A DNA stretch of 38,808 nt from Thermoplasmata archaeon (GCA_028864975.1 JAGWLG010000035.1:1-38808); one strand, 5' to 3'. Counted from the stretch's first letter, positions 1 to 31,932 are shown. Numbers and translations are program-made. The notes: generated by a model not told the origin, from the letters alone.

Positions 1-1472
1 GAAGCGACGACGCTGAGCGGCGTGCCTCCGCCGCCCGAGACCGTGACCGGAGGCGCGTTCGCCGAGGCCGTATGGCCTGCGGAATCATTGACCGTGAGCG
101 TCGCGATGTAAGATCCCGCGGAGGCGTACGTGTGCGAGGGGTTCTGCGTCGTCCCGTGGGGCGTCCCGTCCCCGAAGTTCCAGAACCATGAGGAGTACGT
201 TCCGCTCCCCCCGGTGGCCCCACCCGTGCAACCCACCGAGAGGGGGGCGCTGCCGCTGGTCGGGGCGACCGTCGCGCTCGCCGCGAGCAGCGTACCCGAG
301 ACGGTGAAAGTGCAACCGCTCCCCGTGGACCCCGTCTTCCCTGCCGAGTCCGTCACCGTGAGCATCGGGTTGACCGTGCCTGCCGCGGTGTACTGGTGGT
401 TCACAGGATTGGTCGTACCCGTCCCACCATCCCCGAAGGTCCACGCGTAGGAGTAAGGGGGCGTCCCGCCGGAGACCGCCGCCGTGAAGTTGATGGTGTC
501 GCCCGTCGCGAAGGTCCCGCCGCACGTGAGAGCGCCGCCCGTGTTGAGGTCCTTCATCGCGTAGCTGACCGTGGGAGAAGTACCTCCGCCGCCGCTCCCG
601 AACACGAAGCCCGATTGAAGGTTCGACAGGGCCCCGTTGAACTGGTCCACGTCCGAGGAGCCGTTGATGCCGTTGACCGACCCGCTGCTCGAGTACTGCC
701 AGAAGTTCCACGTGGGCCAGACCCCGGTGTTCGGCGACCCGCTGGTGTAGTCCGCGATCCAGATCGGGTACATCGTGAGCCACGAGAGCATGCAGCTCCC
801 TGCTTCGGAGCTGTCCGTGTAGATGATCGGGTACACGTTGGTGTAGCCTTTCGTCGTGATGTAGGCGGTGACGGCGCTCAGCCACTGCCCGTCCCAGGAC
901 GAGAGCTGCTGGGCAGAGAGCGAACCGGAGCCATCCGCTGGGCACCCTTGCTCCTGGTCCAGCGCAGGGTAGACATAGCCCGAAGCGAAGTAAGCGCCCG
1001 CCACGCTCGTGAAGGTGTTGGCCTCGGTAGTCGCGTTGTCCGCGCTCGAGCAGGCCTGAACGTTCCCCGTGGGAAGCTCGGCGAAGTCGTACCCCGCGAT
1101 GTACACCCCTTTGGTCGGCGCCGTGTTCATGTTGTAGGTGAACGTCGAGTCGTCGCATCCGCTGCTCTCGCCCTCGGCAGCCTTCGTGAATGCGAACGTG
1201 TTCCCTGCCTGCGCAACATCCCACCAGTTGACCGAACCCTGGTAGTGCGAGGTGTCCACCCCGTTGAGCGTGGTCGCATGAACATGCGGGGAGTGGAGCA
1301 GCGCGGAGAGCGCGCTCGTGGGGTGGAAGGCGTGCGGAGCCGTCGACGGGGTAGCCCCTGGAGCGTGCGTCGGGAGAACCCCAAGGACAGCTACTGCGAC
1401 GGCGAGGAACAAGAGCGAGGTCCTGATCGATCTCGACCCACGAGGACATGCGGCTCGGGAGGCGTTGCTCAC
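1..1472 (-). CDS. Secreted GH25 muramidase-like protein with PKD domains (3'-truncated by window edge; not in ORF track)
   Basis: Manual translation from GTG at 1472 (GGTGA upstream, in-frame TGA at 1500-1502) stays open to base 1. It gives a signal peptide ([18 protein letters not shown]), GH25 motifs [15 protein letters not shown] (DxE), [10 protein letters not shown] and SDVDQF, then PKD repeats YAWTFGDG and WFWNFGDG. Confidence 0.9.
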
Positions 1473-1496
1473 GGTCCTATCACCGCTCGCGACCGC

Positions 1497-1510
1497 TTTT
1501 CAACCCTTCG
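1497..1510 (-). promoter_or_regulatory. Putative BRE/TATA-like element of GH25 gene 1
   Basis: Minus strand reads gaagggTTGAAAAg, ending ~24 nt before GTG 1472, which is the spacing expected for a leaderless or short-leader archaeal transcript. Confidence 0.35.
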
Positions 1511-1541
1511 CGAAGCGCAACGCTGACGGGAGAGGGTGCGT

Positions 1542-4256
1542 CTAGGGTGGCCCGGGCTGCAAAGGTGGGGCGTCGGCCCAATCCGGGCCGGCGGGTCCGG
1601 GCCCTGGGACGTATTCGGGCCCGAATGCCGTGACATTCGGAGGGGGTCGGTGACGCCGGCGGTGAACGGCGACGACCGCCAGGATGGCCACCGCGGCGAT
1701 GCCGAGCGCCAAGAGCCCCAACAGCAAGGGATTCCCGGTCAGCCAGGAGAGGAACCCGCTGTTCGGGGGGGTCGTGGGGGCGGACGTGGATGAGCGCGCA
1801 CGAGGCGAGAGGGAGAAATTGAGACTGAGGAGCGTACCGCCCGCGAGCGTGCAGGTCTGCTCAGAAGAGCGATAGCCAGGGTCGCTCACGTTGACGACGT
1901 AGCTACCGGATCCCAGCGGGAACCGGAAGGAGCCGTTCGTCGGGGTGAGCACCGACGCCACGGGGTGTCCGTCCGAGGCTGCCTTGACCGCGACGGTGGC
2001 GCCTCCGAGCAAGAGACCTGAGCTCGCATTGCGGACCCAGCCGTCCAGCACCCCGCCCGTCGGGGTCACCACGGAGACGACCACCGAGGCGGAGGTCGCC
2101 GACTGCCCCGAGGAATCGGTCACCTTGACGGTGGGGGTGTAGGTACCCGTGACCGCGTAGGGATGGGTGGTCGTCGGCCCCGTGGTGGTCGTGCTGCCGC
2201 CGTCCCCGAAGGTCCAGGCGTACGAGACGTACGAACCTGAGCCCCCTGAGGGGGATCCGGTAAAGGCCACGGGGGCACCTACGCTGACGGTGCTAGGGAC
2301 CGCCGACAAGGTTACGGCCAGGGAGCCGCCACCGTTCCCGAGGGGCCACACCGCGATGGGGACGGGGGTCGAGGTGGCAGTGGCTCCTGAGGAGTCCGTT
2401 ACGGTAACGGAGGCGTTGTAGTGCCCCACGACCGTGTAGGTGTGGGACGCAGGGTTCCCGGAACCGCTGGCGCCATCTCCGAAGCTCCAGGTGAAGGGGC
2501 CGTAGCTTCCCACGCCCCCGGAGGGGCTGGCCCGGAAGGTCACGGCGAGCGAAACGTGTCCGCTGGAGACGTTCGAGCTGGCCTGGACGGCGAGCGCCGG
2601 GGACACGACGATGGAGGGCGCGGAGGTGGTGAACGAGCCCCCAGCGCTGTCGTTGACGGTGAGCGTCGGCGTGAAGGTGCCGACCGTGGCGTAGGTGTGC
2701 GAGGCGTTTCGCCCGCTCCCGTGGGTCGTCCCATCTCCGAAGTTCCAGAACCATGTGTAGGGGGCTTGGCCACCGGAGGCCGCACCGGCCAGCGTGACCG
2801 CAAGGGGGACGACGCCGCTCGTCGGGGTCGCGCTGGCCGTGGCGGAGAGGGAGGCTCCACCGTTGAACTGGACCTGGAAGAACGCGTAGGTCCCTGGGTA
2901 GCCGCTCTGGTAGGCGCCGACGCTCCCACTGGGGTCGGAAGCCAGTTCGAAGAAGACCTCGTCGGCGGGTCCCTTCGTGGGGGGTCCCAAGGTGAGCGTC
3001 GCGTTCGTCGCGGGCAGGACCCAGGAGGAGACGATGGTGCTGTTCGAGGTGCTGTAGTTCCCCTCGAAGATGTGGTAGTGCGAGGGGTTGAACGACACTT
3101 CCTGCGTGATGTCGACCGACATGATCGAGGCGCCCGCGTTCACGGCCGAGTCCTCGTAGCCCTGCTCATCCGTACCGAGCGTGAAGAGCTCGAGATCCCC
3201 CCCTGAGGTGGTGGGCACTTCGTTGGTGTTCAACCCCCAGCTCCCGGGCGCGTACGTCTGGCTCGTGGAGCCGTTGCCCGCCCCGTTGTAGACGAAGTCG
3301 TGGACCGCGGTCCACAGATGGGCGTTGTCGAGCGATGCGGCGGAGTCGTCCAGCGCCCACCAGGCGGTGTTTGTGACCCCCGCCGCCGCGACCTGAGAGA
3401 ACTCCTGGACCATCTGGGCGTCGGTGCAACCGCTCTCGGGGTCCATGCCCTCTCCCAGATGGGCGAGGGGAAAGTTCGCGACATCGCTCGAGAGCGTCGA
3501 CTGGAACCCGGGCGGACACTGGTAGTTCATGTCGAAGAAGATGTCCCCCGTGGTTGCCGCGAGCGCCGGCAGGTTCCAGAAGTTCGAGTCCCAGTAGGCG
3601 AAGTCGAGGGTGACGATGAGCCCCTTCGCATGGCTCTGGTTGGAGAACTGGTCGACGAAGTGGGCTAGGTGGTACCCATCCGCGGGGGTCGTGGTCCCCG
3701 GTGCGCAGCTCGTGTCCGGCTCCCAGTCGATGTTGTACCCTCCATAGCCGTAGGTCTGGGCGTAGGTGAGGGCCTGGGAGATGAACGTCGTCCAGCCGGA
3801 GGGCGCGCCTAGGAAGCTCTGGAGCGTGGCGATGGTGCAGGTCGTCACCATCGGGAGGGGCGTCATTCCCCAAGCCTTCACGACCGCCGTGGGATCGTTG
3901 GAGGTTCCCTCGTACCCGCGGGAGCAGAACCAGTTCCCGCACGAGGTGCTGAGCGTGTACATCTCGTAGGAGAGCTGGGTCATGTTCGTGTGGTAGGGCT
4001 GATACTCCGACTGGAACGCACTGGCGCTCCCGGACCACGTGCAGAACTGGCAGACCCATGGCATGAAGTTCCCCGTGACCGTGAGCCCCGAGGCGTGGAA
4101 GCTCGGAGCGGAGGCCTTGGAAGGGAGAGCGGAAGGGATGGCAGTGGGTCCTGCCCGAGGGATGCTGGCGCGTCCCGGGGATCCCGCGCCTACGACAGAT
4201 GGGACCGTGCCGGTGAGCAACAGACCGATCGCCAGGACAGCGACGCTGAGCCTCAT
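1542..4256 (-). CDS. Secreted, C-terminally anchored GH18-family glycoside hydrolase with 3 PKD domains and a carboxypeptidase-regulatory-like domain
   Basis: Signal peptide MRLSVAVLAIGLLLTG (alternative ATG at 4418), GH18 motif GYGGYNIDWEP, three W(N/S/T)FGDG PKD repeats, LDGWVRNAS...GATV...YVVNVSDPGY beta-sandwich, TM helix, then HRRRHR and a Pro-rich tail. Confidence 0.85.
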   Translation of the reverse strand: MRLSVAVLAIGLLLTGTVPSVVGAGSPGRASIPRAGPTAIPSALPSKASAPSFHASGLTVTGNFMPWVCQFCTWSGSASAFQSEYQPYHTNMTQLSYEMYTLSTSCGNWFCSRGYEGTSNDPTAVVKAWGMTPLPMVTTCTIATLQSFLGAPSGWTTFISQALTYAQTYGYGGYNIDWEPDTSCAPGTTTPADGYHLAHFVDQFSNQSHAKGLIVTLDFAYWDSNFWNLPALAATTGDIFFDMNYQCPPGFQSTLSSDVANFPLAHLGEGMDPESGCTDAQMVQEFSQVAAAGVTNTAWWALDDSAASLDNAHLWTAVHDFVYNGAGNGSTSQTYAPGSWGLNTNEVPTTSGGDLELFTLGTDEQGYEDSAVNAGASIMSVDITQEVSFNPSHYHIFEGNYSTSNSTIVSSWVLPATNATLTLGPPTKGPADEVFFELASDPSGSVGAYQSGYPGTYAFFQVQFNGGASLSATASATPTSGVVPLAVTLAGAASGGQAPYTWFWNFGDGTTHGSGRNASHTYATVGTFTPTLTVNDSAGGSFTTSAPSIVVSPALAVQASSNVSSGHVSLAVTFRASPSGGVGSYGPFTWSFGDGASGSGNPASHTYTVVGHYNASVTVTDSSGATATSTPVPIAVWPLGNGGGSLAVTLSAVPSTVSVGAPVAFTGSPSGGSGSYVSYAWTFGDGGSTTTTGPTTTHPYAVTGTYTPTVKVTDSSGQSATSASVVVSVVTPTGGVLDGWVRNASSGLLLGGATVAVKAASDGHPVASVLTPTNGSFRFPLGSGSYVVNVSDPGYRSSEQTCTLAGGTLLSLNFSLSPRARSSTSAPTTPPNSGFLSWLTGNPLLLGLLALGIAAVAILAVVAVHRRRHRPPPNVTAFGPEYVPGPGPAGPDWADAPPLQPGPP

Positions 4257-4480
4257 CCCCCAGACCGCGGTGGGCCAGGCGTGGGCTCCGAGAAGGGGGC
4301 CTCGCGCGAGAGAGACCACGAGCGCTGGACCGAGCCTGGCTCCATAACGGTATCTCGGGAAGGAACCGCGGCTTCCCCTCGGTACCACCAGGGGACCGGA
4401 AGGTCCGGATTCCGTCATTCTGTCGTTCCGTCTTGGACGACAGAAGGTTTTTTCGTAGGGCGCTCCAAAGTAGACCTCGG

Positions 4481-7240
4481 ATGGTCCGTCTCCGAGCTTC
4501 CACGGGACCCAGACCGACATCCGCTCATGTTCCAGCCACTTGGGCCACCTGGGCCTTCCTCCTGTTGCTCGTCTCACTACCGGGGCCCACCTTCGGGGAC
4601 GCATCGGCGGCCCCGCTCCCGTCCGCCCCGGCCCAAGGTCTCGCCACCCTGGCCCACTCCACTCCCGGGGTGCCATCGGTGGCGTCCACGACCCCTCACA
4701 CCCCTCAGTCAACGCTGAGCGGGGTCGATGTCTCGGTCTACCAGGGCTCGGGCGTCAACTGGGGGTCCGTCCACGGCGCCGGGAACTCCTTCGCCTTCGC
4801 CCGGGCCGTCGCTTACTACGGCCACAACGACCCGGATTTCTCGACGAACATGGTGAACGGAAAGGCGGCCGGGATGTACATGGGAGCCTACGACTTCGTC
4901 TACCCCGCCTCGGAGAGCGCGACGGGGGACGCGGACTACTTCAACGGGGTGATCACTCCCTACGTGGCCAACGGCTACATGTACCCGGCCCTCGACCTCG
5001 AGTCGGATTGCACGGCTTCGGGCGGGAGTCTGTCGGCCTCGCAGATCACGGCCTGGGTCAATGCTTGGGGGCTCCAACTGGAGAAGGACCTGGGCTCCGA
5101 CGGGTTCGCGGGGGTGAAGCCCACCGTCTACATGAACGGGAACTACGCGAGCAACTGTATCGTCTCCTCCTCCTGGGACAAGTGGCCGCTCTGGATCGCC
5201 GGCTACTGGAGCCCATGCGCGACCTCTCCGGGACCGAACACAGGGAGCATCGGTCCCTACTCCTACTGGCAGTGGTGCAGTTCGGGTAGCACGGGAGGCA
5301 TCTCCCCCGTGGACCAGGACATCTTCGCTGGGAGCCTCTCGCAGCTACAATCGGGGTTCGTCTTTGGCGGAGGAGCCCCAACGGCAAACTACGCGATGAA
5401 GGACCAGACGACGAACTCGGCGCTCTTTTGCGGTGGAACCTTTGCCGCGGGGGATACCATCCAGTTCACGGCGTCGGCTTCCGGTGGGACGGCGCCCTAC
5501 ACCTATGCCTGGGACTTCGGGGACGGGAAGACTGGGAGCGGGAACCCCGTTACCCACGTGTATACGGCCCCAGGGACCATCGACGCTATACTGACGGTCA
5601 CCGATGCGGGCGGGAAGACCGGGACCAGCGGCGCCGGTTGCCCCTTCACGGTGACCGGGACGGTTCGGCCAGCGCTCGCCGCGCTGCTCGCGGCCACTCC
5701 CAGCTCGGTGTTCTCCGGGAACACCACGGCCCTCCAGGTCACCGTGAGCTCCTCGTCCGCCCCGGTGGCCGGAGCGGTCGTGGCCTTCGCCGCGTCCCCC
5801 ACGGGGGGGACGTTCTCGTCGGCCACCGCCACGACGAACGCCCTGGGAGAAGCCTTCACGAACTACACCAGCGGTTCGGTCTCCTCTGTCACCACCGTCT
5901 CGCTCAACAGCTACAGCACCCGAACCGGCTACACGCCAACGAACGCCTCGACCTCCCTGACCGTCAACCCGCGACCGCTCACGGTCCAGGTCGCCCCGGT
6001 CAACCTGACGACCTTCGGCGGGCAGCCCCATGCCCTCTCGGTGAACGTCTCGTCCTGGGGCGCCGTGCTCCCCGGGTGCGCCCTCACGTTCTCCGATGGC
6101 GGCGCAGGAGGATCTTTCTCTCCGGCGACCGCGACGAGCGGGAGCCTCGGCAACGCCAGCGTGACCTATACTCCGCCGAAGACCGCCTCGGGGACGAATG
6201 TCACCCTCATGGTGAGCGGTACGGAGTCGGGATACACGACCGTCACGGGGACTTCCATCTGGCACGTCCAACCGGCGACCCTTTCGCTGAACCTCACGCC
6301 GCTCCAAGGCGCCATCGACGCGGGCGGATACCTGGGTGTGAGGGCGACCGTAACGTTCCCATCGCTCTCGGGTGGCGGCGCGCGAACCCCGGTCGAGGGC
6401 GCTCTGGTCGTGTTCTCCTTGGCCCCATCGACCGGCGGGCATCTCAACGTCGGCGCCGGCGGCACCGGGCCGAACGGCTCCTTCGTGGTCCAGGTAGCAG
6501 ACACCCAGCCCGGGGGGACCTTCCTGACGCTGGACGGGACAGCGAACTACACGGGTGCGTTCAATTCTACCGCGTCCGTGCGGATCCCCGTCGTCGCCGC
6601 ACCCCTCGTTCCCCTCGCGACACTTTCGGCGACGGCCACGACGATGGACGCGGGGCAGACCCTCGCGCTGGTGGTCCGCGTGACCGCGACGCAAGAAGGG
6701 GCTGCGGTCTCTCCCGATGGCGTCCAGGTGAGCTTCTCTTCCAGCGCGGGGGGGAGCTTCGTCCCCACGGTCGTCACGATCAGCGGTGCGGGTAGCACGG
6801 CCTATCTCCACGCGAACTACTCGGCCCCCGCGTCCGTTCCCTCCGGGGGACTGTTGGTCACCCTGAGCGTGCTGGCCGAGGCGACGGCGGGACATACCTC
6901 GGTGAGCAATCTTTCCGTGATGGTCTTCCACCCGAGCGGCGGTGGGATCCTTTCCTTTGCCTTCCAGGGCTACGGCCTGCTCCTCTGGGTGGGCGTCGCC
7001 GCGGTGGCGGCCGTTCTGGTCGCGCTCATCCTGCGACGGCGCCGGCGCCGCCCTCACCTCCCCTCGACGGAGCCCGCGGCCCCGTCGGAGACCCCAGCCG
7101 AGCCCTCTGTGGAAGAGGTCGCCCCTGGTCCGCCAGCGGGCGCCACCTCCGCCGCCGACCCCACGGCCGACCCCACGCCTCTCAGCGCCCCGTCCCCCGG
7201 GACCCCCGCGCCAGAGCCATGGCCGGACATCCCGGAATAG
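4481..7240 (+). CDS. Secreted, C-terminally anchored GH25 muramidase-like protein with PKD and Ig-like (Big-like) stalk
   Basis: ATG 4481 and a hydrophobic signal; GH25 motifs GVDVSVYQG, ALDLES (DxE), YWQWCSSG and VDQDIF; PKD YAWDFGDG; about four Ser/Thr-rich beta-sandwich repeats; TM helix, RRRRRR and a Pro/Glu-rich tail. Confidence 0.9.
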   Translation: MVRLRASTGPRPTSAHVPATWATWAFLLLLVSLPGPTFGDASAAPLPSAPAQGLATLAHSTPGVPSVASTTPHTPQSTLSGVDVSVYQGSGVNWGSVHGAGNSFAFARAVAYYGHNDPDFSTNMVNGKAAGMYMGAYDFVYPASESATGDADYFNGVITPYVANGYMYPALDLESDCTASGGSLSASQITAWVNAWGLQLEKDLGSDGFAGVKPTVYMNGNYASNCIVSSSWDKWPLWIAGYWSPCATSPGPNTGSIGPYSYWQWCSSGSTGGISPVDQDIFAGSLSQLQSGFVFGGGAPTANYAMKDQTTNSALFCGGTFAAGDTIQFTASASGGTAPYTYAWDFGDGKTGSGNPVTHVYTAPGTIDAILTVTDAGGKTGTSGAGCPFTVTGTVRPALAALLAATPSSVFSGNTTALQVTVSSSSAPVAGAVVAFAASPTGGTFSSATATTNALGEAFTNYTSGSVSSVTTVSLNSYSTRTGYTPTNASTSLTVNPRPLTVQVAPVNLTTFGGQPHALSVNVSSWGAVLPGCALTFSDGGAGGSFSPATATSGSLGNASVTYTPPKTASGTNVTLMVSGTESGYTTVTGTSIWHVQPATLSLNLTPLQGAIDAGGYLGVRATVTFPSLSGGGARTPVEGALVVFSLAPSTGGHLNVGAGGTGPNGSFVVQVADTQPGGTFLTLDGTANYTGAFNSTASVRIPVVAAPLVPLATLSATATTMDAGQTLALVVRVTATQEGAAVSPDGVQVSFSSSAGGSFVPTVVTISGAGSTAYLHANYSAPASVPSGGLLVTLSVLAEATAGHTSVSNLSVMVFHPSGGGILSFAFQGYGLLLWVGVAAVAAVLVALILRRRRRRPHLPSTEPAAPSETPAEPSVEEVAPGPPAGATSAADPTADPTPLSAPSPGTPAPEPWPDIPE

Positions 7241-7312
7241 GCGGGACGTCCGCTCCTCAGGATACTTAGGTCGCCTAACCTTATTTGTCAGGAACTGCTG
7301 TACCTTCTCACC

Positions 7313-7894
7313 ATGCCGTTCATCGCGGGCATCCAACCGAGCTCGGAGCGTTCCCGCAGGGCGGTGCCCACCCGAGAGCGGAGCTCCTCTGCCCCGGCGG
7401 CTCCGGCCCCGGGGCTCAAGGATGAGCTCTCCAACGCCGAGGGCCTCGACCAGATCTTCCGTGTGGTGCGGCGTGCCGTTCGCTCCGTCCTGGGGCGAGA
7501 GCGCACGGGGCTCGGGCTGGCGATGTCGGACCTTCCCCCTGGCCTGGGTGCGTACTGGCCCGTCACGGGCAATCTGATCGTGATGAACGAGGGGCTCCTC
7601 GCGACGATGCGGACGATGGCCAGCTCGCCGCTCGAGTTCAATTCCTTCGTCTACGTGATCCTCACCCACGAATACCTCCATGCGCTGGGCTACTGGGGGG
7701 AGGATGCGGTCCGCACGGTGACCGCCCGGGTCACCCGGGAGAGCTTCGGGGCCGACCACCCGGCGACCAAGATGGCCGAGGGGGACCTCTGGCAGCGCTT
7801 CCCCTTCCTCCGGTTCGCTCCCGGGGGAAGGGGCAGCCGGCTCCGAATGGTCAAGGGTTTCGACACCGACACCACGTCGGCCTACATTCGCTGA
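7313..7894 (+). CDS. Hypothetical protein with HExxH zinc-metallopeptidase-like motif
   Basis: LGAYW...NLIVMN strands followed by helix ILTHEYLHALG; AT-rich ttatttgt ~30 nt upstream. Confidence 0.7.
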   Translation: MPFIAGIQPSSERSRRAVPTRERSSSAPAAPAPGLKDELSNAEGLDQIFRVVRRAVRSVLGRERTGLGLAMSDLPPGLGAYWPVTGNLIVMNEGLLATMRTMASSPLEFNSFVYVILTHEYLHALGYWGEDAVRTVTARVTRESFGADHPATKMAEGDLWQRFPFLRFAPGGRGSRLRMVKGFDTDTTSAYIR

Positions 7895-7933
7895 GCTCGG
7901 CGGCCGGCCCTCGTCGAAGGCGGCGTTGGGGCG

Positions 7934-8230
7934 CTAACTGAAGCCGGGAAGGTTCTTCACGTCCTTGCCGGAGGAGGGCTTGAGCGGCGCCCTCCTGAGT
8001 TCCTTGGGGCAGGAGACGATGCGGAGGAACGTGGGCGAGATGGCGACGTACTGAGGCAGGCCCGTCACGGGGTCGTTCCCGACGCGAAAGACCTGGTTGA
8101 TCTCGACGCGGATCTCGACCACGCTACCGTCCTTGAGCTTCAGGCGCACCCGGTTCTCACCGCTCTCGACGGTGAAGTCGACCAGCTCGGCGTTCGAGAG
8201 GTCCGGAGGACCCCCAGGTCCCATCATCAT
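7934..8230 (-). CDS. Small beta-rich hypothetical protein, translationally coupled to rpl11
   Basis: ATGA overlap with the rpl11 stop; protein-like LKLKDGSVVEIRVEINQVFRVGNDPVTGLPQY. Confidence 0.75.
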   Translation of the reverse strand: MMMGPGGPPDLSNAELVDFTVESGENRVRLKLKDGSVVEIRVEINQVFRVGNDPVTGLPQYVAISPTFLRIVSCPKELRRAPLKPSSGKDVKNLPGFS

Positions 8231-8700
8231 GTGGCGTTCCCGGAGGCTTTGCCTTTGCGCTCCTTGAGGACCTCACGAGGGTCGCGGTCGTCGACGGTGA
8301 CCCCCATGGAGACGCACGTCCCGATGACCTGGTTCATCCGCTCCTCCTCCGAGCTCCCGAAGAGGTCCTCCTTCTTCATCTCGGCGATCTTGCGGACCTG
8401 CTGCATCGAGACGTTCCCCACGTTCTCGGTCTTCGCCTTGCCGCTGCCCTTCTCCTTCTTCACCTCGGCCAGCAGGAGCGCGGCGGTGCCGGGCCGGCCC
8501 ACCTCTATGGTGAAGCTCTTGTCCGAGCGCACCCGGATGGCGCACGGGACCTTCATCCCGTTGTACATCTTCGTCTTCTCGTTGATCTCGGCCACGACCT
8601 TTCCGACATTGATCCCCAGAGGACCCAGCGCGCTCCCGAGCGTTGCCCCGGGGGCCGCCTTGCCGCCCTCGACGAGGACGCTCACGACCTGATCAGCCAC
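8227..8700 (-). CDS. rpl11: 50S ribosomal protein L11 (uL11)
   Basis: VEGGKAAPGATLGSALGPLGIN...GTCVSMGVTV; position after spt5. Confidence 0.97.
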   Translation of the reverse strand: MADQVVSVLVEGGKAAPGATLGSALGPLGINVGKVVAEINEKTKMYNGMKVPCAIRVRSDKSFTIEVGRPGTAALLLAEVKKEKGSGKAKTENVGNVSMQQVRKIAEMKKEDLFGSSEEERMNQVIGTCVSMGVTVDDRDPREVLKERKGKASGNAT

Positions 8701-9724
8701 CTTTCGTCCCTCCCTTCTCCACCATGCGCACGTGGTCCCCTCGGACCGTGACCGGGATCGGTACGACGGCCTCGATGAGCTCCACTGTGATCTGTTCCTT
8801 GCCCTGGTCGATCTTCTTCACCCGGGCCTTTTCGCCCTTGAACGGACCGGCGACCAGTTCGACGATGGCCCCTTCGACGAAGCCCTCGACGGTGATCTTC
8901 GGGACGAGGAGCGGCTCGACCTCCTTCAGGGTGGTCTCCCCCGCGACGAGGCCCCGTGCCTTGCGGATGCCCCGCATCATCTCGTGGACCCCTTCGAAGC
9001 TCATCCCCTCGGCGAAGACGTAGCCCCGCAGGGCGCTCGGGACGAGAAGGGCGAAGATGACGTCGGGCTTCTCCTCCGCCCGCGTGAGGAGGGTGTCGGC
9101 GACCTCCCGTTCGTAGCCCCGCGACGTCTTGATCGCGAGCAGCGCCTGTCGGGCCGCCCAAGCAAGCCGCAGCGTCGCGGGCCCCTCGCCCGTGACGCTC
9201 TCGCCTTTCCACCGGGCGGAGACCCGGACCTCCATCCGGTCGCCGTAGCGGACCCCGGGAGGGGTCTCGACCTCGAACGTGAGCGGGACCGGGGTACGAG
9301 GATGAAGGTCGATCGTCGCCTCGACTTTGCGGGCGACGACCTCCTCGCGGTTCTTCCTCCCAGGAGGGATCCACCAGGTCCGCCACTCGGCGCCCTCGCC
9401 CTGATAGGTGGAGGAGTAGTGGATCTCGACCTTGATGACCGCTTCTCCGACCTCGGGACGGTCGGACCCCACGACCGCCGAGAGCGAGGTCGTCGTCCCC
9501 GCGGTGACCTCCCGGAGGGTCTCATCGACCGCCTTCACGGAGAGGTGAACCGGCTGTGAAGCCGCCTGGCGTGGAGCCGCCGCGCCCCCGATCTCCTCCG
9601 TGGGGCGGAGGACCGACTCCTTCGGCGCCTGAGGGAGGGTCTTCGGCGCCGCCTTCTCCTCGCCGGTGAGGAGGCCGATACCGTCCCCTTCCTCTTGGGT
9701 GGCCTTCGGCCCAGGGGGGCTCAC
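8693..9724 (-). CDS. spt5: Transcription elongation factor Spt5 (NusG) with long N-terminal extension
   Basis: NGN domain AIKTSRGYEREVA...LRGYVFAEG, KOW motif VELVAGPFKGEKARVKKID; GTGA overlap with secE. Confidence 0.95.
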   Translation of the reverse strand: MSPPGPKATQEEGDGIGLLTGEEKAAPKTLPQAPKESVLRPTEEIGGAAAPRQAASQPVHLSVKAVDETLREVTAGTTTSLSAVVGSDRPEVGEAVIKVEIHYSSTYQGEGAEWRTWWIPPGRKNREEVVARKVEATIDLHPRTPVPLTFEVETPPGVRYGDRMEVRVSARWKGESVTGEGPATLRLAWAARQALLAIKTSRGYEREVADTLLTRAEEKPDVIFALLVPSALRGYVFAEGMSFEGVHEMMRGIRKARGLVAGETTLKEVEPLLVPKITVEGFVEGAIVELVAGPFKGEKARVKKIDQGKEQITVELIEAVVPIPVTVRGDHVRMVEKGGTKGG

Positions 9725-12055: not shown

Positions 12056-13897
12056 TCACCCCGGGGCGGTCGAGCTCGCCCACCAGACCGTCTGGTCCCC
12101 GTCGGAGTAGAGGACGACGAATCCGGGACCTGCGAGCCTCGCGAGCGCCGAGGGGCTCATGGGAACGGCCGGTTCGGAGGGGTCGAGGGCCACGCCGCTC
12201 TGGACCATGGTCGCATCGGCGGCCACGACGTCGACCGGTCCGCGCAGGGGGGGATTGGGGAGGTAGGAGCTCTTGAGCTCGGCCATCGCACAGAGGTTAC
12301 GGTCGCCGACGAAGAGGCAGCTCGCATTGTCCCAGGTCGCAGGAGAGCCGCCGGAATCGAAGAAGTAGAGGTCGCTCAGCCGGTGGTCCGAGGCGAGGTG
12401 GGCTCCCCGCGACAGCTCGGTGGCCATCCAGCTCGCCAGGGTCAGGTCCTGCGCGGTGAAACCCTCTTGAAAGCCCACGAGCACGGAAGGGGGAGGATAG
12501 GCCGTGGCGGCGTTGGCCGCCATCAGGACGACCACGGCACCGAGCGCGGCGGCGTACGCCCCCCGACGAGGAGAGGCACGGGCGCTCGCCAGGGCGCGTC
12601 CCACCACGACCGCGACAACGAGCGCCAAGGGAACAAAGAGGTACTCGGGATGTCGGTCCGCCGGGATGGCGATGTTCCCCGTCGCCAGGGCGAAGATCGC
12701 GGAGAGCCCGATCGCGATCATGATCGTGTATCCCGCCGGTCCGAGTCGCGGGATGGGCAGGACGCCCTTGGCCCCGCTGGCGAGAGGTACGTAGAGCACC
12801 GTGGGGGTGAACCAGAGAAGGTCGAGCAGGGTCACCTTGTCCCCCGTGCCGGGGAGTGGGACGAGGAAGAGCAACGAGAGCCCTCCGAAGATGAGTCCCC
12901 CCAGCACGAGAACATCCCGAACCACGTGGGTGCGGTTCGGCCACCGCACGGACCACGCCGGCCAGCGCCCTCGCCCGCCCAGCGCGCGGCGACGTCGGAG
13001 CTCGATCAGCGCTCCCGCCACGACGACCCCAAGGATCCCACCCAGCGGCGCGAGAAGGGGGGAGGACCCCAGGAGCCCTTGGGAGATCTCCCGGGCGAAG
13101 GGAGGGGCGTAGTCGAACCAGTAGACGAACAGCGCCACCGAGAACGCTCCGAGGAACGCGAGCTCGCGGAGCGGGAAGCGACGGCTCCACCGACGTGGCG
13201 CGAAGAGCTCGACGCCCACAACCAGCCCCACCGCGGAGACCAGGAAGAAGTAGGATGAGAGGTGGTGCGTCAAGACCAGCGAGGGAGCGGTCAAGGAGAG
13301 CACGGCCCACCACCGGGCGTCGCGTCGTTGCTCGACCAGGGCCCAGAGCGAGGCGACCCAGAGAAGGTCGCCCAAGGTCAGAGGGGCGGCGTGCGAGAGG
13401 ACCAAGAGCCTCGTCGAGGCCACACCCGAGAGCGCCGCTCCGAGCAGCGCGACCCGGTCCGACGGGAAGAGCCTCCGAAAGAGGAGGAAGAGCGGGACGA
13501 CCCCGAGGGCTCCCAGGATCGGCACCGTGAGCTCGAGGCTGAGCAGGGTGTCCGCGCCGGTCGCTGAAGCGACCGCGGCCCCGACCTCGAACATGCCGGG
13601 GAAGTAGGGGTAACCGAAGCCCCAGCCGTGGTAGCCTTGGAGCCAGAAGCGCTGGTGCGCGAGCAGCGATTGCGAGAGAAGCGCGTACTCTCCGCTATCG
13701 GACCCCCAGGCCCCGAACAGGAGGAGCGGCTCGAGCCCGAGGAAGGTCGTGAGGAGCGCGAGCGCGCCAAGGAGCAGGGCGAGTGCCGCAGGGCGGAGGC
13801 ATCCGTCAGGCCCTCTTGCGACCGACGGAGGCATCGAGGCCGATGCAGGAGGGACCCCCTGATGAAGCCCGCGCCACGACCGGTGGGCTCCCGACAC
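12056..13897 (-). CDS. Multi-pass membrane protein, probable GT-C (PMT/ArnT-like) glycosyltransferase
   Basis: Acidic motif GSDSGEY after TM1, YPYFPG, THHLSS, about 12 hydrophobic segments and a C-terminal extramembrane domain. Start is GTG 13897 or ATG 13834. Confidence 0.65.
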   Translation of the reverse strand: MSGAHRSWRGLHQGVPPASASMPPSVARGPDGCLRPAALALLLGALALLTTFLGLEPLLLFGAWGSDSGEYALLSQSLLAHQRFWLQGYHGWGFGYPYFPGMFEVGAAVASATGADTLLSLELTVPILGALGVVPLFLLFRRLFPSDRVALLGAALSGVASTRLLVLSHAAPLTLGDLLWVASLWALVEQRRDARWWAVLSLTAPSLVLTHHLSSYFFLVSAVGLVVGVELFAPRRWSRRFPLRELAFLGAFSVALFVYWFDYAPPFAREISQGLLGSSPLLAPLGGILGVVVAGALIELRRRRALGGRGRWPAWSVRWPNRTHVVRDVLVLGGLIFGGLSLLFLVPLPGTGDKVTLLDLLWFTPTVLYVPLASGAKGVLPIPRLGPAGYTIMIAIGLSAIFALATGNIAIPADRHPEYLFVPLALVVAVVVGRALASARASPRRGAYAAALGAVVVLMAANAATAYPPPSVLVGFQEGFTAQDLTLASWMATELSRGAHLASDHRLSDLYFFDSGGSPATWDNASCLFVGDRNLCAMAELKSSYLPNPPLRGPVDVVAADATMVQSGVALDPSEPAVPMSPSALARLAGPGFVVLYSDGDQTVWWASSTAPG

Positions 13898-23567: not shown

Positions 23568-23645
23568 TTTTATGGGGGCCCTCAGCTCCCCCGGACCTAC
23601 GGAAAGCGACGCCCTTTCCGGTGTGATGACTCCCGAGTGAGGTGG
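23568..23645 (+). promoter_or_regulatory. TATA-like TTTTAT (23568-23573) and SD GAGGTG (from 23639) of infB
   Basis: AT-rich hexamer in GC-rich DNA; SD shortly before ATG 23649. Confidence 0.4.
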
Positions 23646-23648
23646 CCA

Positions 23649-25418
23649 ATGTCCCTACGACAGCCCATCGTTTCCATGATGGGTCACGTGGACCACGGGA
23701 AGACGACGCTCCTCGACAAGATCGCCGGTTCGGCGAAGGCCTCGAAGGAGGCGGGGGGGATCACCCAACATATCGGAGCCGTCGAGGTCCCCCTCAAGGT
23801 CATCGAGAAGGTGTGCGCGGGACTTCTGCGCGAGGAGCAGTTCTCCATCCCCGGGCTGCTGTTCATCGACACTCCCGGGCATCGCTCCTTCGTCACGATG
23901 CGACGTCGCGGCGGGGCTCTCGCGGACATCGCGATCGTGGTCATCGACGTGCGGGAGGGGGTCATGCCCCAGACCCGCGAGGTGCTCCAGATCCTTCGCC
24001 ACGAAAAGACGCCGTTCATCATCGCCGCGAACAAGGTCGACACCATCCAAGGGTGGCGCACCCCCCCGGCGCGCACGCCGCTCCCCGCCTTCTTGGCCAC
24101 CCTCCCCACGGACACGCAGAAGGCGATCGATACACGCATCTACTCCCTCTCCGAGATGCTGGACCAGCTCGGGTTCTCGGCCGAGCGCTACGACCGGGTC
24201 TCCGACTATACGCGGAACGTGGCCATCGTTCCGGTGAGCGCCAAGACGGGCGCGGGCATCCCGGACCTCCTGGCGGTGATGGTGGGGCTCTCCCAGCGCT
24301 TCCTCGAGGAGGAGCTTCGTCAGGAGGAGCGGCCAGGGGAGGCCACGGTGCTCGAACGGACCGAGGAACGGGGGATCGGCCCGGTGGCGAACGTCATCGT
24401 CTACCAGGGAAGGATGAAGGTCGGGGACCCGATCGTCGTCACGGGCACCGACGGGCCCTTCGTGTCGAAGATCCGGGTGCTGACCCGACCCGTGGTGGTC
24501 CGGGCCGGCCGGGGGACCCCTTCCCGAAGGATGGAACCGCTCACCGAGGCGGTGGCGGCCTCCGGGGTCCAGCTCTCCGCCCCGGAGATCGAAAAGGCCC
24601 TTCCGGGGGGGCTCATCAAGGTCATCACCGCCAGCGGAGGGGAGGCCGCCGCCGAGCGGGCGCGGGAGGAGCTGGAGAGCGAGACCTACCCGGTCGCCGC
24701 CGTGGAGGAGAACGGGGTCTGGCTGAAGGCGGACACCCTCGGGGGACTGGAAGCGCTCGCTTTCGAGTGCAAGGAGGCCCGTATCCCCATCAAGGGGGCG
24801 GAGGTAGGCGCCGTCACGAAGCGCGACGTGCTGGTCATGAAGGCGGTCAAGGACCCGCTCTCCCGGGCGGTGCTGGCCTTCGCCGTCCCTGTGCATCCCG
24901 AGGCCGCCGCGACCCTCCCGGGCGCCGACGTGAGGGTGTTCTCGGGAGAGGTCATGTACCGCCTCCTCGAAGAGTACCAGGAGTGGAAAGGGAAGCGCCA
25001 GATCGAACTGGAGCAGGAACGGCGAAAGGCCCTCGTCCACCCCGCGAAGTTTCAGGTCCTACCAGGGTTCGTGTTCCATCGATCGCATCCGGCCATCGTG
25101 GGCGTGAAGGTGCTGGCGGGAACGCTGCGACCCCCCAGCCGCCTCATGGCGAAGGACGGCACGGACGTCGGCCTCTTGCGGGGGCTACAGGACAAGGGGG
25201 ATTCCCTCAAGGAAGGAGAGGAAGGGGCGGAGATCGCCGCCTCGATCGAGGGCGCGACCGTAGGTCGGTCGTTCAACGAGGGGGACACGCTCTACGTCGC
25301 TATCTCCGAGGAGGGTGCACGAGCGCTCGCCCGCGTCGAGCTCCGCCCCTCGGAACGCGAGGTCTTCGACGAGGTCCTCCAGATACGCCGTTCCAAAGAG
25401 CCGTTCTGGGGCAAGTGA
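23649..25418 (+). CDS. infB: Translation initiation factor aIF5B (IF-2)
   Basis: LRQPIVSMMGHVDHGKTTLLD, EAGGITQHIG, DTPGH, NKVD, VSAKTG, GTLGGLEAL-like KADTLGGLEAL, HPAIVGV. Confidence 0.97.
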   Translation: MSLRQPIVSMMGHVDHGKTTLLDKIAGSAKASKEAGGITQHIGAVEVPLKVIEKVCAGLLREEQFSIPGLLFIDTPGHRSFVTMRRRGGALADIAIVVIDVREGVMPQTREVLQILRHEKTPFIIAANKVDTIQGWRTPPARTPLPAFLATLPTDTQKAIDTRIYSLSEMLDQLGFSAERYDRVSDYTRNVAIVPVSAKTGAGIPDLLAVMVGLSQRFLEEELRQEERPGEATVLERTEERGIGPVANVIVYQGRMKVGDPIVVTGTDGPFVSKIRVLTRPVVVRAGRGTPSRRMEPLTEAVAASGVQLSAPEIEKALPGGLIKVITASGGEAAAERAREELESETYPVAAVEENGVWLKADTLGGLEALAFECKEARIPIKGAEVGAVTKRDVLVMKAVKDPLSRAVLAFAVPVHPEAAATLPGADVRVFSGEVMYRLLEEYQEWKGKRQIELEQERRKALVHPAKFQVLPGFVFHRSHPAIVGVKVLAGTLRPPSRLMAKDGTDVGLLRGLQDKGDSLKEGEEGAEIAASIEGATVGRSFNEGDTLYVAISEEGARALARVELRPSEREVFDEVLQIRRSKEPFWGK

Positions 25419-25483
25419 AGAGTCGCCGGGGGTGGGAGGCCGCCCCCAGCTCTTGCGTTCGGGCCGTCGCGGCGAGCACGGCC

Positions 25484-26239
25484 CTACTCGACTTCGCTTG
25501 GGGCGGGGACTTCGGAGCCTTCCTGGTCCCTCTCTTCGTCCTGTGGGAGTTGGGTCCCTGCGCTGGACTTCCCGGGGTCCTGGGTCCCGTTCTCGAGCTC
25601 TTCCTCCCCCTTCTCCTCCTCCGGCTCGGGCAGGACCTCGGGCATGGTCTTCCCCGTGTAGGGGTTGCCTCGAAGGAAGAAGCCCAAGAACGCCAAGATC
25701 CCGCCGACCACCGAGAGCGCCCCGGCCGCGACCAGGACGATGGTGACCTCCCAGAGCGGGATACCGGAGGAGGTGTTGGCCGTGACCGTGTACCCCGCGT
25801 CGACGAGGGCCGCCGCGCTTCCGAGGTTCAGGACGTCCAGAACGTACGGATACTGGGTCGCGGGGTTCGCCGTGAAGATGGCCGAGTAGCCTCCGTGGCC
25901 GTTCGTGGTCGCCGAAACGTTGACCAGGACGCAGGGCCCCGAGGCGCCGGGGTCGGCCAAGTCCACGTTGGCGCAGCTCCCGGTGGCCTTGAGGAAGTAG
26001 ACCTGGACCTGCGCGGACGACGCAAGGTTCACGGAGATCCACCCCGAGGTGATCGCCACTCCCTGCGTGCTCAGCCCCACCGACTCCACCAGGTGGCCGT
26101 TGGGGGAGATCGAGGTGGAGGGAACGCCCCCGGTTTGGGTGATCTTGGAGGTGGACGGGAAGTTGATCAGGCCGACCCCGACGACCAAGAGCCCCAGGGC
26201 CACGAAGACCCCACCGGCCATGACGAGGCCCGGTCTCAC
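25484..26239 (-). CDS. Hypothetical membrane protein (N-terminal TM, beta-rich ectodomain, TM, acidic tail)
   Basis: Hydrophobic N-terminus, Cys pair in the beta domain, second TM, Glu-rich tail; GTG 25 nt from the TATA. Confidence 0.75.
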   Translation of the reverse strand: MRPGLVMAGGVFVALGLLVVGVGLINFPSTSKITQTGGVPSTSISPNGHLVESVGLSTQGVAITSGWISVNLASSAQVQVYFLKATGSCANVDLADPGASGPCVLVNVSATTNGHGGYSAIFTANPATQYPYVLDVLNLGSAAALVDAGYTVTANTSSGIPLWEVTIVLVAAGALSVVGGILAFLGFFLRGNPYTGKTMPEVLPEPEEEKGEEELENGTQDPGKSSAGTQLPQDEERDQEGSEVPAPSEVE

Positions 26240-26263
26240 GGCGAAGCTACCCTTGTAAATAGC

Positions 26264-26269
26264 TATAAA
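26264..26269. promoter_or_regulatory. Bidirectional TATA box
   Basis: Reads TATAAA (+) and TTTATA (-); about 24-25 nt from GTG 26293 (+) and GTG 26239 (-). Confidence 0.6.
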
Positions 26270-26292
26270 CAGTGGCCCTGCTAGCCCCTCAC

Positions 26293-27642: not shown

Positions 27643-28359
27643 ATGGCACGGGTGGAGGACCACGAGTCGGTCGAGGGGTGCGCGCTCCCGAGCAAACTCC
27701 TCTACGACCTCGAATTGGATGTCTGGGCTCGACCCGGAGGAGACGGCCGCCTGCTGACCTTCGGCATCATGTCGCCCCTGGCGTCGTTCGCGGGGAAGTT
27801 CCTGGAGGTCTCCTTCCGTCGGATCGAAGGAGCGCTCACGCGCGGTCAGAGCGTCGCGACGATCGTGAGCGCACGTTTCACGGGAGCCGTTCGCGTCCCC
27901 GCGGGAGGGCAGATCGTCGAGCGCAATCCGGAGCTATCGCAGCGTCCGAAGCTTCTCAACAACGACCCTTACGGACAGGGCTGGGTCGCGACGGTCGATC
28001 TGGGGGGATCGGCCCCCCTCCCTCCCACGCTCCGAGACGCCTCCCACGTGCGGGAGGAGGTCGCGCGGAAGGTCCGCGAGATGCACATCCGCTGCTATCC
28101 CGCCGTCCCCGACGTCGAGCTCTTCGAGATCGGGAGCGAGTGTTCCGCAGTGCTCGCTCACCTCGACGACGAGGTCGCCCGGCGTGCTCCCGAGGAAGTG
28201 ATCCTCCTTGTCGCGGACGATCCGACCGCCCCCATCGAGCTGGAACGATGGCGGATGAGGACCGGCCACAGTATCCTTCATTGGAGGAAGGAGGAGAACC
28301 TCTACCACTTCCTGGTCCGACGGGAGCGAGCGCCCCGACCTTCTCGTCCCTCCCCCTGA
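27643..28359 (+). CDS. Fusion of glycine-cleavage H-protein-like domain (lipoyl Lys replaced by Arg) and TusA/SirA-like sulfur-carrier domain
   Basis: H-like: LLY...DVWA...TFGI, GQSVATIVSARF, NPEL..RP.LLNNDPYGQGW. TusA-like: IGSECS...LLVADDPTAPIELERW...YHFLVRR. SD GAGGAG. Confidence 0.85.
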   Translation: MARVEDHESVEGCALPSKLLYDLELDVWARPGGDGRLLTFGIMSPLASFAGKFLEVSFRRIEGALTRGQSVATIVSARFTGAVRVPAGGQIVERNPELSQRPKLLNNDPYGQGWVATVDLGGSAPLPPTLRDASHVREEVARKVREMHIRCYPAVPDVELFEIGSECSAVLAHLDDEVARRAPEEVILLVADDPTAPIELERWRMRTGHSILHWRKEENLYHFLVRRERAPRPSRPSP

Positions 28360-31059: not shown

Positions 31060-31232
31060 GGGACCTCACCAGCAGGGGTCATGCCCCCCATAATCTCTGC
31101 GGCGGGACGCCACCGCGTTCCTGGCGGAGGGGGACCTCCCACAGTACGGCGAACGACCTCGCGTCCCCCCCTGAGGGGGCGATGGGGGGGATCCCCCCTT
31201 TCGGGGTACCCCGGTCTCTCCGCACTTCCTGG

Positions 31233-31817
31233 CTATCGGAGCGCCTCGAGCTGCCGTCGGAGCTCGCTGTCGGTCCGCACCCGGCTGAGCTCCAGGTCTC
31301 TCAGGGCCTCCGAGAGATCGCCCTCGGTGTAGACCCCTTCGAACACCGAAGGGAACGCCCCTCGGAGCGCAAGGGCCTCGGCGACCTCGGCGAGCATCGT
31401 GTCCGGCTCGGAAGCCCATCGGCCGAGCGGCTCTCCCTCCTCGATGCGCGGGGACCGCTCGTGCCAGAAGGCGGTCCGGACGACCCCTCGCTCGAGGTCG
31501 GTCCGGCGGACGCGGACCGTCGCGGCCGCCGGCACCCCTTGCCCGTCGCGCACGAACTCCGGCAGCTCCGTTCCCACGAACTTGCCGGTCCGCTCGGCCA
31601 AGCTGCGCAAGAGGCCGATCGGGAGGACCACGACCATGCCCGCCCGCTCCCCGGAGCTGTCGATCAGCGAGGCCACCCGCACCTCCTTCGGATCGAAGCG
31701 ATGCTTCTCGGCGAACGCGCCCAAGAACGAACGCTCCTCTGGCGAGATCGCCGGGTCCTCGAGGCCCCGGAGCGTTCCCAGCCGTGCCGGTGCGAGCTGG
31801 GGCGCCTCCTCGGTCAT
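31233..31817 (-). CDS. RecT/Red-beta (Bet)-like single-strand annealing protein core
   Basis: IGLLRSLAERTGKF.G, W...PDTMLAEVAEALALRGAFP...GVYTEGD resemble Bet-family motifs; start ATG 31817. Confidence 0.65.
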   Translation of the reverse strand: MTEEAPQLAPARLGTLRGLEDPAISPEERSFLGAFAEKHRFDPKEVRVASLIDSSGERAGMVVVLPIGLLRSLAERTGKFVGTELPEFVRDGQGVPAAATVRVRRTDLERGVVRTAFWHERSPRIEEGEPLGRWASEPDTMLAEVAEALALRGAFPSVFEGVYTEGDLSEALRDLELSRVRTDSELRRQLEALR

Positions 31818-31932
31818 TGACCCCCATAACGTGGAGGAAGGGCATGAGCCTGACGCGCGCGAAAGGTGACGGCCCGTGGCCGCAGGAGCGAAGGCTATCT
31901 GCGGGAGCGCTCCCCGATGACCTAGAGGACTC

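Follow-up and report, generated by a model that had tools for sequence, protein, structure and literature searches.

In the window analysed here, the whole of contig JAGWLG010000035.1:1-38808 (38,808 nucleotides) of the uncultured, wall-less Thermoplasmata archaeon GCA_028864975.1, the study region at positions 1-7240 holds three large open reading frames (ORFs), A and B on the minus strand and C on the plus strand, each encoding a large type-I membrane protein in which a catalytic head, preceded by a signal peptide, is carried on a PKD/Ig stalk that leads to a single transmembrane helix and an Arg-rich tail. We propose, with a probability that we put at roughly 60%, that the three are extracellular glycoside hydrolases held on the archaeon's membrane, where they would cut bacterial peptidoglycan, and that the trio is not a dedicated operon; the stalked enzymes would thus probably digest bacterial cell walls at the archaeal surface. 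Domain identity, intact catalytic residues, tethering topology, archaeal host and purifying selection are established below; what the three proteins do, we infer throughout from their sequences. That there are three adjacent large genes at this place, as the original prediction had it, was confirmed (ORFs at 3..1472, 1542..4256 and 4481..7240), and the many overlapping ORFs seen here are chance frames in a DNA of 67-70% GC.

The heads of A and C matched PF01183 (Glyco_hydro_25) at 85.9 and 80.1 bits respectively, against a cut-off of 27, in agreement with the genome search. Among solved sequences the best match of the C head was Cellosyl (1jfx; phmmer 6.1e-19), whose GIDVS Asp and LDIE motif aligned to D99, D188 and E190 of C; the catalytic residues of Cellosyl are D9, D98 and E100. 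The catalytic Asp and DxE columns were invariant in 28 GH25 homologues. Moreover, comparison of A with its same-genus orthologue put dN/dS at 0.23 in the head and 0.21 in the PKD region, and gene A is therefore under purifying selection. With scores above the Pfam cut-off and residues aligned to Cellosyl, the proposal that both genes carry a GH25 domain with Asp and DxE intact was upheld, and A and C are by family GH25 N-acetylmuramidases of predicted activity; to our knowledge, GH25 enzymes are known only as muramidases. The features of the two genes are as follows.

3..1472, minus strand: gene A, N-terminal 490 codons; ORF truncated by the contig end
4177-5562 of locus L005, minus strand: remainder of gene A, ~427 codons, in a near-identical assembly
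666..1259, minus strand: GH25 muramidase head of A (PF01183), the genome search placing the match at 666-1259
1254-1256, 957-959 and 951-953, minus strand: catalytic residues D73, D172 and E174 of A, in invariant alignment columns
33..575, minus strand: first two PKD domains of the A stalk (PKD_4 2.2e-27, two stretches)
4481..7240, plus strand: gene C, 919 amino acids (aa); ORF with an identical protein on record (P0004)
4724..5302, plus strand: GH25 muramidase head of C (PF01183; phmmer match to Cellosyl)
4727-4729, 4994-4996 and 5000-5002, plus strand: catalytic residues D99, D188 and E190 of C, aligned to 1jfx
5435..5623, plus strand: PKD domain directly after the C head (PKD_4 1.4e-15); head and PKD homologous to A
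5663..6946, plus strand: Big_1-like Ig repeat stalk of C (PF02369 1.4e-08, three stretches, just over the cut-off when scanned alone)
6956..7051, plus strand: transmembrane helix and RRRRRR patch of C (Kyte-Doolittle 2.95), followed by a Pro/Ala-rich tail to 7237

The head of B, scanned alone, had no Pfam match even at E<=10, and phmmer against the PDB reached only GH18 insect chitinases at E ~0.1. An exhaustive HMMER search over 1.84 billion representatives recovered 168 relatives, many of them stand-alone proteins of 250-290 aa; this GH18-like head family consists mostly of unannotated metagenomic proteins, and several of its short members match PF00704 below threshold (E 4e-4 to 3e-2, 14-21 bits compared with a cut-off of 29.6). 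In an alignment of 40 B-head homologues (A1), an Asp (D140) was invariant and a Glu two residues on (E142) nearly so, and hmmsearch with the A1 profile against the PDB identified 4q6t (6e-15), 5jh8 (4e-12), YdhD (1.8e-11) and YaaH/SleL (1e-10 to 1e-9). The AlphaFold model of the head (pLDDT 90.4, pTM 0.88) has eight alternating strand/helix units forming a (beta/alpha)8 barrel, and all the Foldseek PDB matches listed for it are GH18-family proteins (chitinases, chitinase-like proteins, SleL and YdhD), with TM-scores of 0.64-0.73 for most and of ~0.70 (E 4e-12) for the top matches 5jh8, 4q6t and SleL. In the B motif G-G-Y-N327-I-D329-W-E331, the catalytic Glu and the preceding Asp are kept, while the first two Asp of the GH18 DxxDxDxE are Gly and Asn, the full motif thus not being kept; the Asn variant is visible also in the 4q6t and 5jh8 alignments, and the MxY on beta6 and the Trp on beta8 are present as well. 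Because of these profile matches, the barrel model, the kept Asp and Glu, the MxY and the Trp, we accept the B head as a divergent GH18, closest, as judged from profile and model, to the YdhD/SleL/4q6t group, and the earlier assignment of a GH18 with NxDxE stands. One relative, P0072 (1342 aa, metagenomic), is fused to PKD and Amidase_6 domains, which hints that the head family may work on cell walls. The all-beta domain that follows the head in B was modelled by AlphaFold from four sequences as 8 strands at a pLDDT of 57; Pfam gave only a chance-level PE-PPE match for it and an ESM Atlas feature search returned blank.

1542..4256, minus strand: gene B, 904 aa from the ATG at 4256 (public gene call from GTG 4319, 925 aa)
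3294..4100, minus strand: divergent GH18 (beta/alpha)8 head of B (profile against PDB, model, Foldseek)
3720-3734, minus strand: B motif N327-I-D329-W-E331, the GH18 NxDxE
3528-3536, minus strand: MxY of B, M395-N396-Y397 of FDMNYQ, which begins at F393 (3534-3536)
3366-3368, minus strand: T449, the start of TAWWAL, within which lies the beta8 Trp of B
2868..3293, minus strand: ~140-aa all-beta domain between head and stalk, present only in the three closest homologues
2058..2867, minus strand: three PKD domains of B (PKD_4 1.2e-37, three stretches)
1788..2057, minus strand: CarboxypepD_reg-like beta-sandwich beside the membrane (PF13715 6e-05, below cut-off; collinear with the A module)
1647..1745, minus strand: transmembrane helix and HRRRHR stop-transfer patch of B (Kyte-Doolittle 2.97, aa 838-867 from M153)
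1545-1646, minus strand: Pro-rich cytoplasmic tail of B, after the HRRRHR patch

The same matches bear on whether B acts on the substrate of its neighbours. B might instead be functionally unrelated to A and C, a chitinase, chitobiase or endo-beta-N-acetylglucosaminidase with glycoproteins or the chitin of fungi or arthropods as its substrate, and the chitinase annotation of its top Foldseek and profile matches (5jh8, 4q6t and 7z64) would fit this, as would the many unrelated heads that the stalk scaffold bears in this lineage and the nearest B relatives standing alone in another genus. We consider it possible but on the unlikely side, since cortex-peptidoglycan enzymes (YdhD, YaaH and SleL) are also among the best matches, one family member bears the Amidase_6 domain, Pfam detected no chitin-binding module, and NagA was not found in the 89.6%-complete genome. 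SleL, YaaH and YdhD act on spore-cortex peptidoglycan, and their inclusion among the closest solved relatives of B is a point in favour of the proposed digestion of peptidoglycan.

Pfam recognized PKD domains in all three genes and Big_1-like Ig repeats in C, and N-terminal hydrophobic segments were present in A and B (Kyte-Doolittle ~2.1; aa 1-25 from M153 in B) and in C, where the hydrophobic segment (h-region) is shorter and comes after a basic stretch. The PKD/Ig stalks anticipated from the first inspection were recovered, as were, judged from these hydrophobic segments, putative signal peptides. Each protein has a single strong C-terminal transmembrane segment (Kyte-Doolittle ~2.95), which is followed by a basic patch of four to six residues, most of them Arg, and by a 20-62-residue tail rich in Pro; Ser/Thr content is 23-29% and N-x-S/T sequons number 1.0-1.7 per 100 residues. 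The transmembrane and poly-Arg anchor expected in the two complete genes, B and C, was found in both and is shared by A, whose missing C-terminus (P0059, from L005) has four more PKD domains, a CarboxypepD_reg-like domain, a transmembrane helix and RRRR; the two assemblies combined therefore give the whole of gene A, and all three genes, not only two, end in an anchor. The topology of A, B and C reads as that of type-I membrane proteins with the head outermost. A sortase-type anchor was rejected, since no NCBIfam archaeosortase/exosortase-type sorting signal (PGF-CTERM and similar) matched in any of the three and tails of 20-62 residues lie behind the Arg patch.

Long stalks are also an adhesin-like architecture, and the heads could on that ground be mainly lectin-like, hydrolysing little or nothing and serving attachment or syntrophy by binding to glycans or to bacterial walls. 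This seems highly improbable given that the catalytic Asp and DxE are invariant in the GH25 clade, that the Asp is invariant and the Glu nearly so in the GH18-like family, and that dN/dS is ~0.2; inactive lectin-type GH18 proteins usually lose the Glu.

The three genes proved to be related piece by piece. A and C are 47% identical over 372 aa (head and first PKD) with unrelated stalks, and A and B are collinear in stalk and anchor (46% over 418 aa) with unrelated heads. Because the stalk of A recurs in B and its head in C, the three can be described as mosaics of exchangeable heads and stalks, and all of them may have been drawn from one modular pool of such parts; about 12 places in this genome, in large proteins, share the membrane-proximal module. 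In a maximum-likelihood tree of 55 GH25 domains with thin bacterial sampling, the four GH25 genes of this genome (A, C and the two on contigs C54 and C97) lie in different subclades of one clade (support 96/92). Besides Thermoplasmata sequences, this clade contains metagenomic proteins without a name and a single short protein from Nitrososphaerales; a few bacterial sequences, among them a Verrucomicrobiae protein, form its sister group. A search of genome contigs with a 13-sequence GH25 alignment returned few bacterial relatives, and no bacterial donor lineage can be named from this thinly sampled tree. The GH25 genes of other Thermoplasmatota families, among them that of genome G088 (1,486,778 bp, single contig), which we take to be probably Aciduliprofundum boonei, group apart in a second clade (99/94). 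By this phylogeny, the GH25 domains of A and C belong to a Thermoplasmata-specific clade that is expanded to four copies in this genome. The description of the cluster as duplicated fails in its recent sense: at 47% identity and in different tree subclades, A and C are old paralogues, and a recent tandem duplication was rejected. A search for GH25 homologues of short length gave only six matches. P0210 (250 aa), a stand-alone GH25 from a Nitrososphaerales metagenome-assembled genome (MAG), is 44% identical to the C head and nested in the Thermoplasmata clade, a placement that points either to a binning error or to gene transfer from one archaeal phylum to another.

A search with the DNA of the L005 locus identified three same-genus genomes that keep the flanks at 72-82% identity, with a single gene between them, the A orthologue (73-76% identity); relative to these, B and C, ~5.9 kb together, are extra in this species. 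The nearest relative of C is found in another genus of the family (P0005, DBS1-1.bin134; 70% identical), and the nearest relatives of the B head, G010:C4 and P0061, are likewise in another genus, where they stand alone, at 66-68% identity compared to 31-43% for same-genus genomes and in-genome paralogues. C, too, is less similar to same-genus genomes and to its paralogues in this genome. A recent copying of B from a paralogue in this genome was rejected on these values (own copies 31-40%, against 66-68% in another genus). Judged from these comparisons, B and C sit beside an ancestral gene A as a species-specific juxtaposition.

Beyond this locus, the family comprises ~20 clusters of GH25+PKD proteins of 800-1,200 aa at 38-70% identity, assigned to Thermoplasmata/Thermoplasmatota wherever named and found almost only in Thermoplasmata MAGs. 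Of 41 relative genomes, 14 have GH25 and 12 the GH18-like head, with both head types in every sampled member of genera g1 (3/3) and g3 (5/5); in an even sample of 301 Thermoplasmatota genomes, each head type occurs in 11 and the two together only in this family. This genome has four GH25 and four GH18-like heads. Conserved synteny of the trio was rejected, since the same-genus locus holds only A and the two head types lie on separate contigs in the other genomes having both, with 0/11 showing them on one contig; the original notion of a cluster acting as a system is, on the same observations, not supported. GH25-PKD genes elsewhere adjoin giant S53 pro-kumamolisin-PKD, GH57-PKD and Kelch-PKD genes, and three such neighbourhoods from related Thermoplasmata MAGs are given here.

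L006 13258-17349, L008 17543-23045 and L010 12889-16590: GH25-PKD neighbourhoods with S53 peptidase, Kelch propeller and GH57

Because the trio is not conserved, the neighbours elsewhere are varied PKD enzymes and the membrane-proximal module is shared, the recurrent unit is, on gene content, the stalked exoenzyme and not a GH25-GH18-GH25 cluster. The three further GH18-like heads of this genome are at C64:62245-63036, C115:52293-53087 and C59:147143-147958, and two of them lie in the middle of ORFs of >1,000 aa, not at the N-terminus. In one other genus of the family, two genes for stalked GH25 proteins lie ~3.7 kb apart on the same contig (G005:C11:8114-12386, in L034 and L035 and also L020), a different pairing from that of the GH25 genes in this window. 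A MAG labelled 'bacterium isolate DX1.bin10' contains, on two short contigs (L015 and L022), GH25 stalk genes with 66% and 39% identity to C; almost identical genes are present in a Thermoplasmata MAG, and DX1.bin10 is, from this resemblance, probably a mis-labelled or mixed bin.

These distributions also bear on whether GH25, GH18 and GH25 make up a dedicated contact-dependent antibacterial weapon, co-regulated as one system for killing neighbours. Such a system would be in keeping with the tethering of all three proteins, none being released, with the spacing of B and A (same strand, 70 nt apart), and with the divergent intergenic region that B and C share.

4257..4480, no strand: intergenic region between the divergent genes B and C; T-rich TATA-like patch ~25-35 nt before the C ATG, read by eye

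It could also draw on the co-occurrence of GH25 and the GH18-like head in g1 and g3, on the A. boonei GH25 that kills Bacillaceae and is induced in co-culture (PMC4241558), and on archaeal peptidoglycan hydrolases that kill bacteria (PMC12352652). We nevertheless judge it quite unlikely: only A is at the locus in same-genus genomes, the head types share a contig in none of the 11 other genomes having both, homologues elsewhere adjoin protease, GH57 and Kelch genes, the co-occurring genera g1 and g3 are kin and represent at most one or two independent lineages, and the locus is without immunity, regulator or delivery genes. Unlikely, too, is a peptidoglycan-cutting battery on stalks for contact-dependent lysis of bacteria, in which muramidase and then GH18 N-acetylglucosaminidase would act on the same strand; if true, it would mean a surface-tethered predatory or bacteriolytic lifestyle in wall-less archaea with no secretion machine needed.

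The host is archaeal. Outside the study region, the window has genes for TruD, a Y-family polymerase and a Hel308-type helicase with the archaeal 'domain 4', and an independent assembly, GCA_028867375.1, has the same gene order, near-identical, on a 566,829-bp contig (locus L005), with GatD, GatE and a HAD hydrolase on one side and L11, Spt5, FtsZ and TruD on the other. Identity between L005 and the window is 99-100% over window positions 1-104 and 139-9000; a stretch that is sequenced in the window is an N-gap in L005, which in turn continues beyond the window start. That a bacterial fragment was mis-binned or chimerically assembled into an archaeal contig, as the typically bacterial or phage affiliation of GH25 and the 124 contigs of the source MAG might lead one to suspect, is almost certainly wrong, given the same gene order on the independent contig, flanked there on either side by archaeal genes, the finding of the A orthologue within the same flanks in three further species, a uniform GC (0.67-0.70 across the window), and a family almost confined to Thermoplasmata MAGs. 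Bacterial or chimeric origin was rejected on the first two of these grounds; the contig belongs to an archaeon and the segment is no chimera, so that the archaeal host first assumed is confirmed by the flanking genes and by the second assembly.

Elsewhere in the window, ARAGORN identified a tRNA-Trp(CCA) at 28224-28320 (minus strand), which at 97 nt is long enough for an intron; archaeal tRNA-Trp genes often contain one. Long ORFs with no Pfam match at E<=0.001 are found at 12056-13897 (minus strand, 613 aa), 23642-26284 (plus strand, 880 aa) and 31066-33186 (minus strand, 706 aa). Some of these may be chance frames of the high-GC DNA; the first corresponds to a called 592-aa gene in L005, which is without Pfam matches.

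We picture the proposed stalked wall hydrolases as follows. Each would consist, in order, of a Sec-type signal peptide, the head, five to eight Ig-like spacer domains, the transmembrane helix, the Arg-rich stop-transfer patch and a Pro-rich cytoplasmic tail, with the heads cutting glycan strands of bacterial peptidoglycan within the reach of the stalk, by our estimate a few tens of nm. The GH25 heads would cut MurNAc-beta1,4-GlcNAc bonds, and the GH18 head GlcNAc-type bonds in peptidoglycan fragments or chitin-like glycans, so that the walls of living bacterial neighbours, or those in debris, would be opened up or digested. Bacterial peptidoglycan is the expected target because MurB was not found in the 89.6%-complete genome, no self-made MurNAc substrate thus being detected. 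What the archaeon would gain is probably access to peptides and cell contents, or an advantage over competitors, as opposed to the salvage of amino sugars. The genome has one Glucosamine_iso-family gene, for NagB or 6-phosphogluconolactonase, and salvage of wall sugars is not supported as the purpose because neither MurQ nor NagA was found at that completeness; access to bacterial contents or competition is, on our analysis, the more likely benefit.

Several observations weigh against peptidoglycan digestion by the three enzymes. The missing MurQ and NagA leave no downstream wall-sugar route visible, and Amidase_2 was not found in the same 89.6%-complete genome; nor did Pfam recognize a peptidoglycan-binding domain (LysM, SH3 or PG_binding) in A, B or C. 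An activity as chitinase or endo-N-acetylglucosaminidase would fit B equally well, since the proteins that match its structural model best are annotated as chitinases. The signal peptides of all three were judged from N-terminal hydrophobicity only. Finally, the grouping is not conserved and the two kinds of gene do not share a contig in the 11 other genomes, so cooperation among the three enzymes is, at the level of gene order, without synteny support.

Evidence of archaea acting against bacteria is scarce and concerns a few soluble enzymes (the A. boonei GH25 and halobacterial M23 hydrolases). If our reading is true, conserved, multi-copy, membrane-tethered lysozymes would add a different, contact-range mode, and wall-less soil and sediment Thermoplasmata would become candidate consumers or killers of bacteria. 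The window offers a clear case of head/stalk swapping among archaeal surface enzymes, and with B it brings to light a family of divergent GH18-like heads unrecognized by Pfam. The original prediction also held that such a cluster was not yet described, which is right only in part: archaeal GH25 enzymes and archaeal peptidoglycan hydrolases have been published (PMC4241558, PMC12352652), and the GH18 partner and the mosaic history are new. A full-text literature search on Thermoplasmata GH25 returned no description of a stalk-tethered Thermoplasmata GH25 family. What is added here is the identification of B as GH18, the head/stalk mosaic, B and C as extra genes beside A, the separation from the A. 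boonei lineage and the negative result on wall-sugar salvage.

Like the A. boonei enzyme, A and C are GH25 lysozymes of a Thermoplasmatota archaeon that makes no murein, but they and the genome's other two GH25 domains, D and E, fall in a supported clade separate from that of G088 and its kin (96/92 compared with 99/94). The Pfam scores differ as well, G088 (probably A. boonei) and its kin reaching ~180 bits against 85-120 bits for the GH25 domains of this clade. For their part, the GH25 genes described here encode PKD/Ig stalks and a transmembrane anchor, occur in several copies and have a GH18-like partner. For the A. boonei GH25 muramidase itself (UniProt B5ID12), bacterial origin and antibacterial activity have been shown, and both nutritive and competitive roles were raised (Metcalf et al., 2014; PMC4241558).

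In a recent survey (Strock et al., 2025; PMC12352652), archaeal and often secreted peptidoglycan hydrolases are read as antibacterial, a recognized wall-binding domain being required; Thermoplasmatota are rich in such hydrolases, some genomes having >1, and the tables include architectures such as PG_binding_1+Glyco_hydro_25 and SH3_3+Glyco_hydro_25, with 'PKD' absent from the supplementary tables searched. Unlike these modular hydrolases, A, B and C are membrane-tethered and without a wall-binding domain (Pfam: PKD, Big_1 and CarboxypepD_reg-like only), and the survey could not see this family because classical wall-binding domains were required (PMC12352652).

Differences of the same kind separate the three proteins from their solved relatives. 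Cellosyl, the Streptomyces coelicolor muramidase M1 (1jfx), is a 217-aa soluble single domain, whereas the A and C heads have extra Cys, insertions and stalks. B resembles YdhD (3cz8), YaaH/SleL (4s3k, 4s3j) and 4q6t/5jh8 in its (beta/alpha)8 fold (TM-score ~0.7), and 4q6t/5jh8 also in the N-x-D-x-E variant of its motif, but it is only 10-18% identical to the YdhD/SleL group and has no LysM domains, the archaeal heads being fused to PKD stalks. Finally, in their signal peptide, variable head, Ig-like repeats, transmembrane helix and basic patch, A, B and C are like the tandem PKD/Ig surface proteins of archaea and differ from others of that kind in heads that are predicted bacterial-wall glycosidases.

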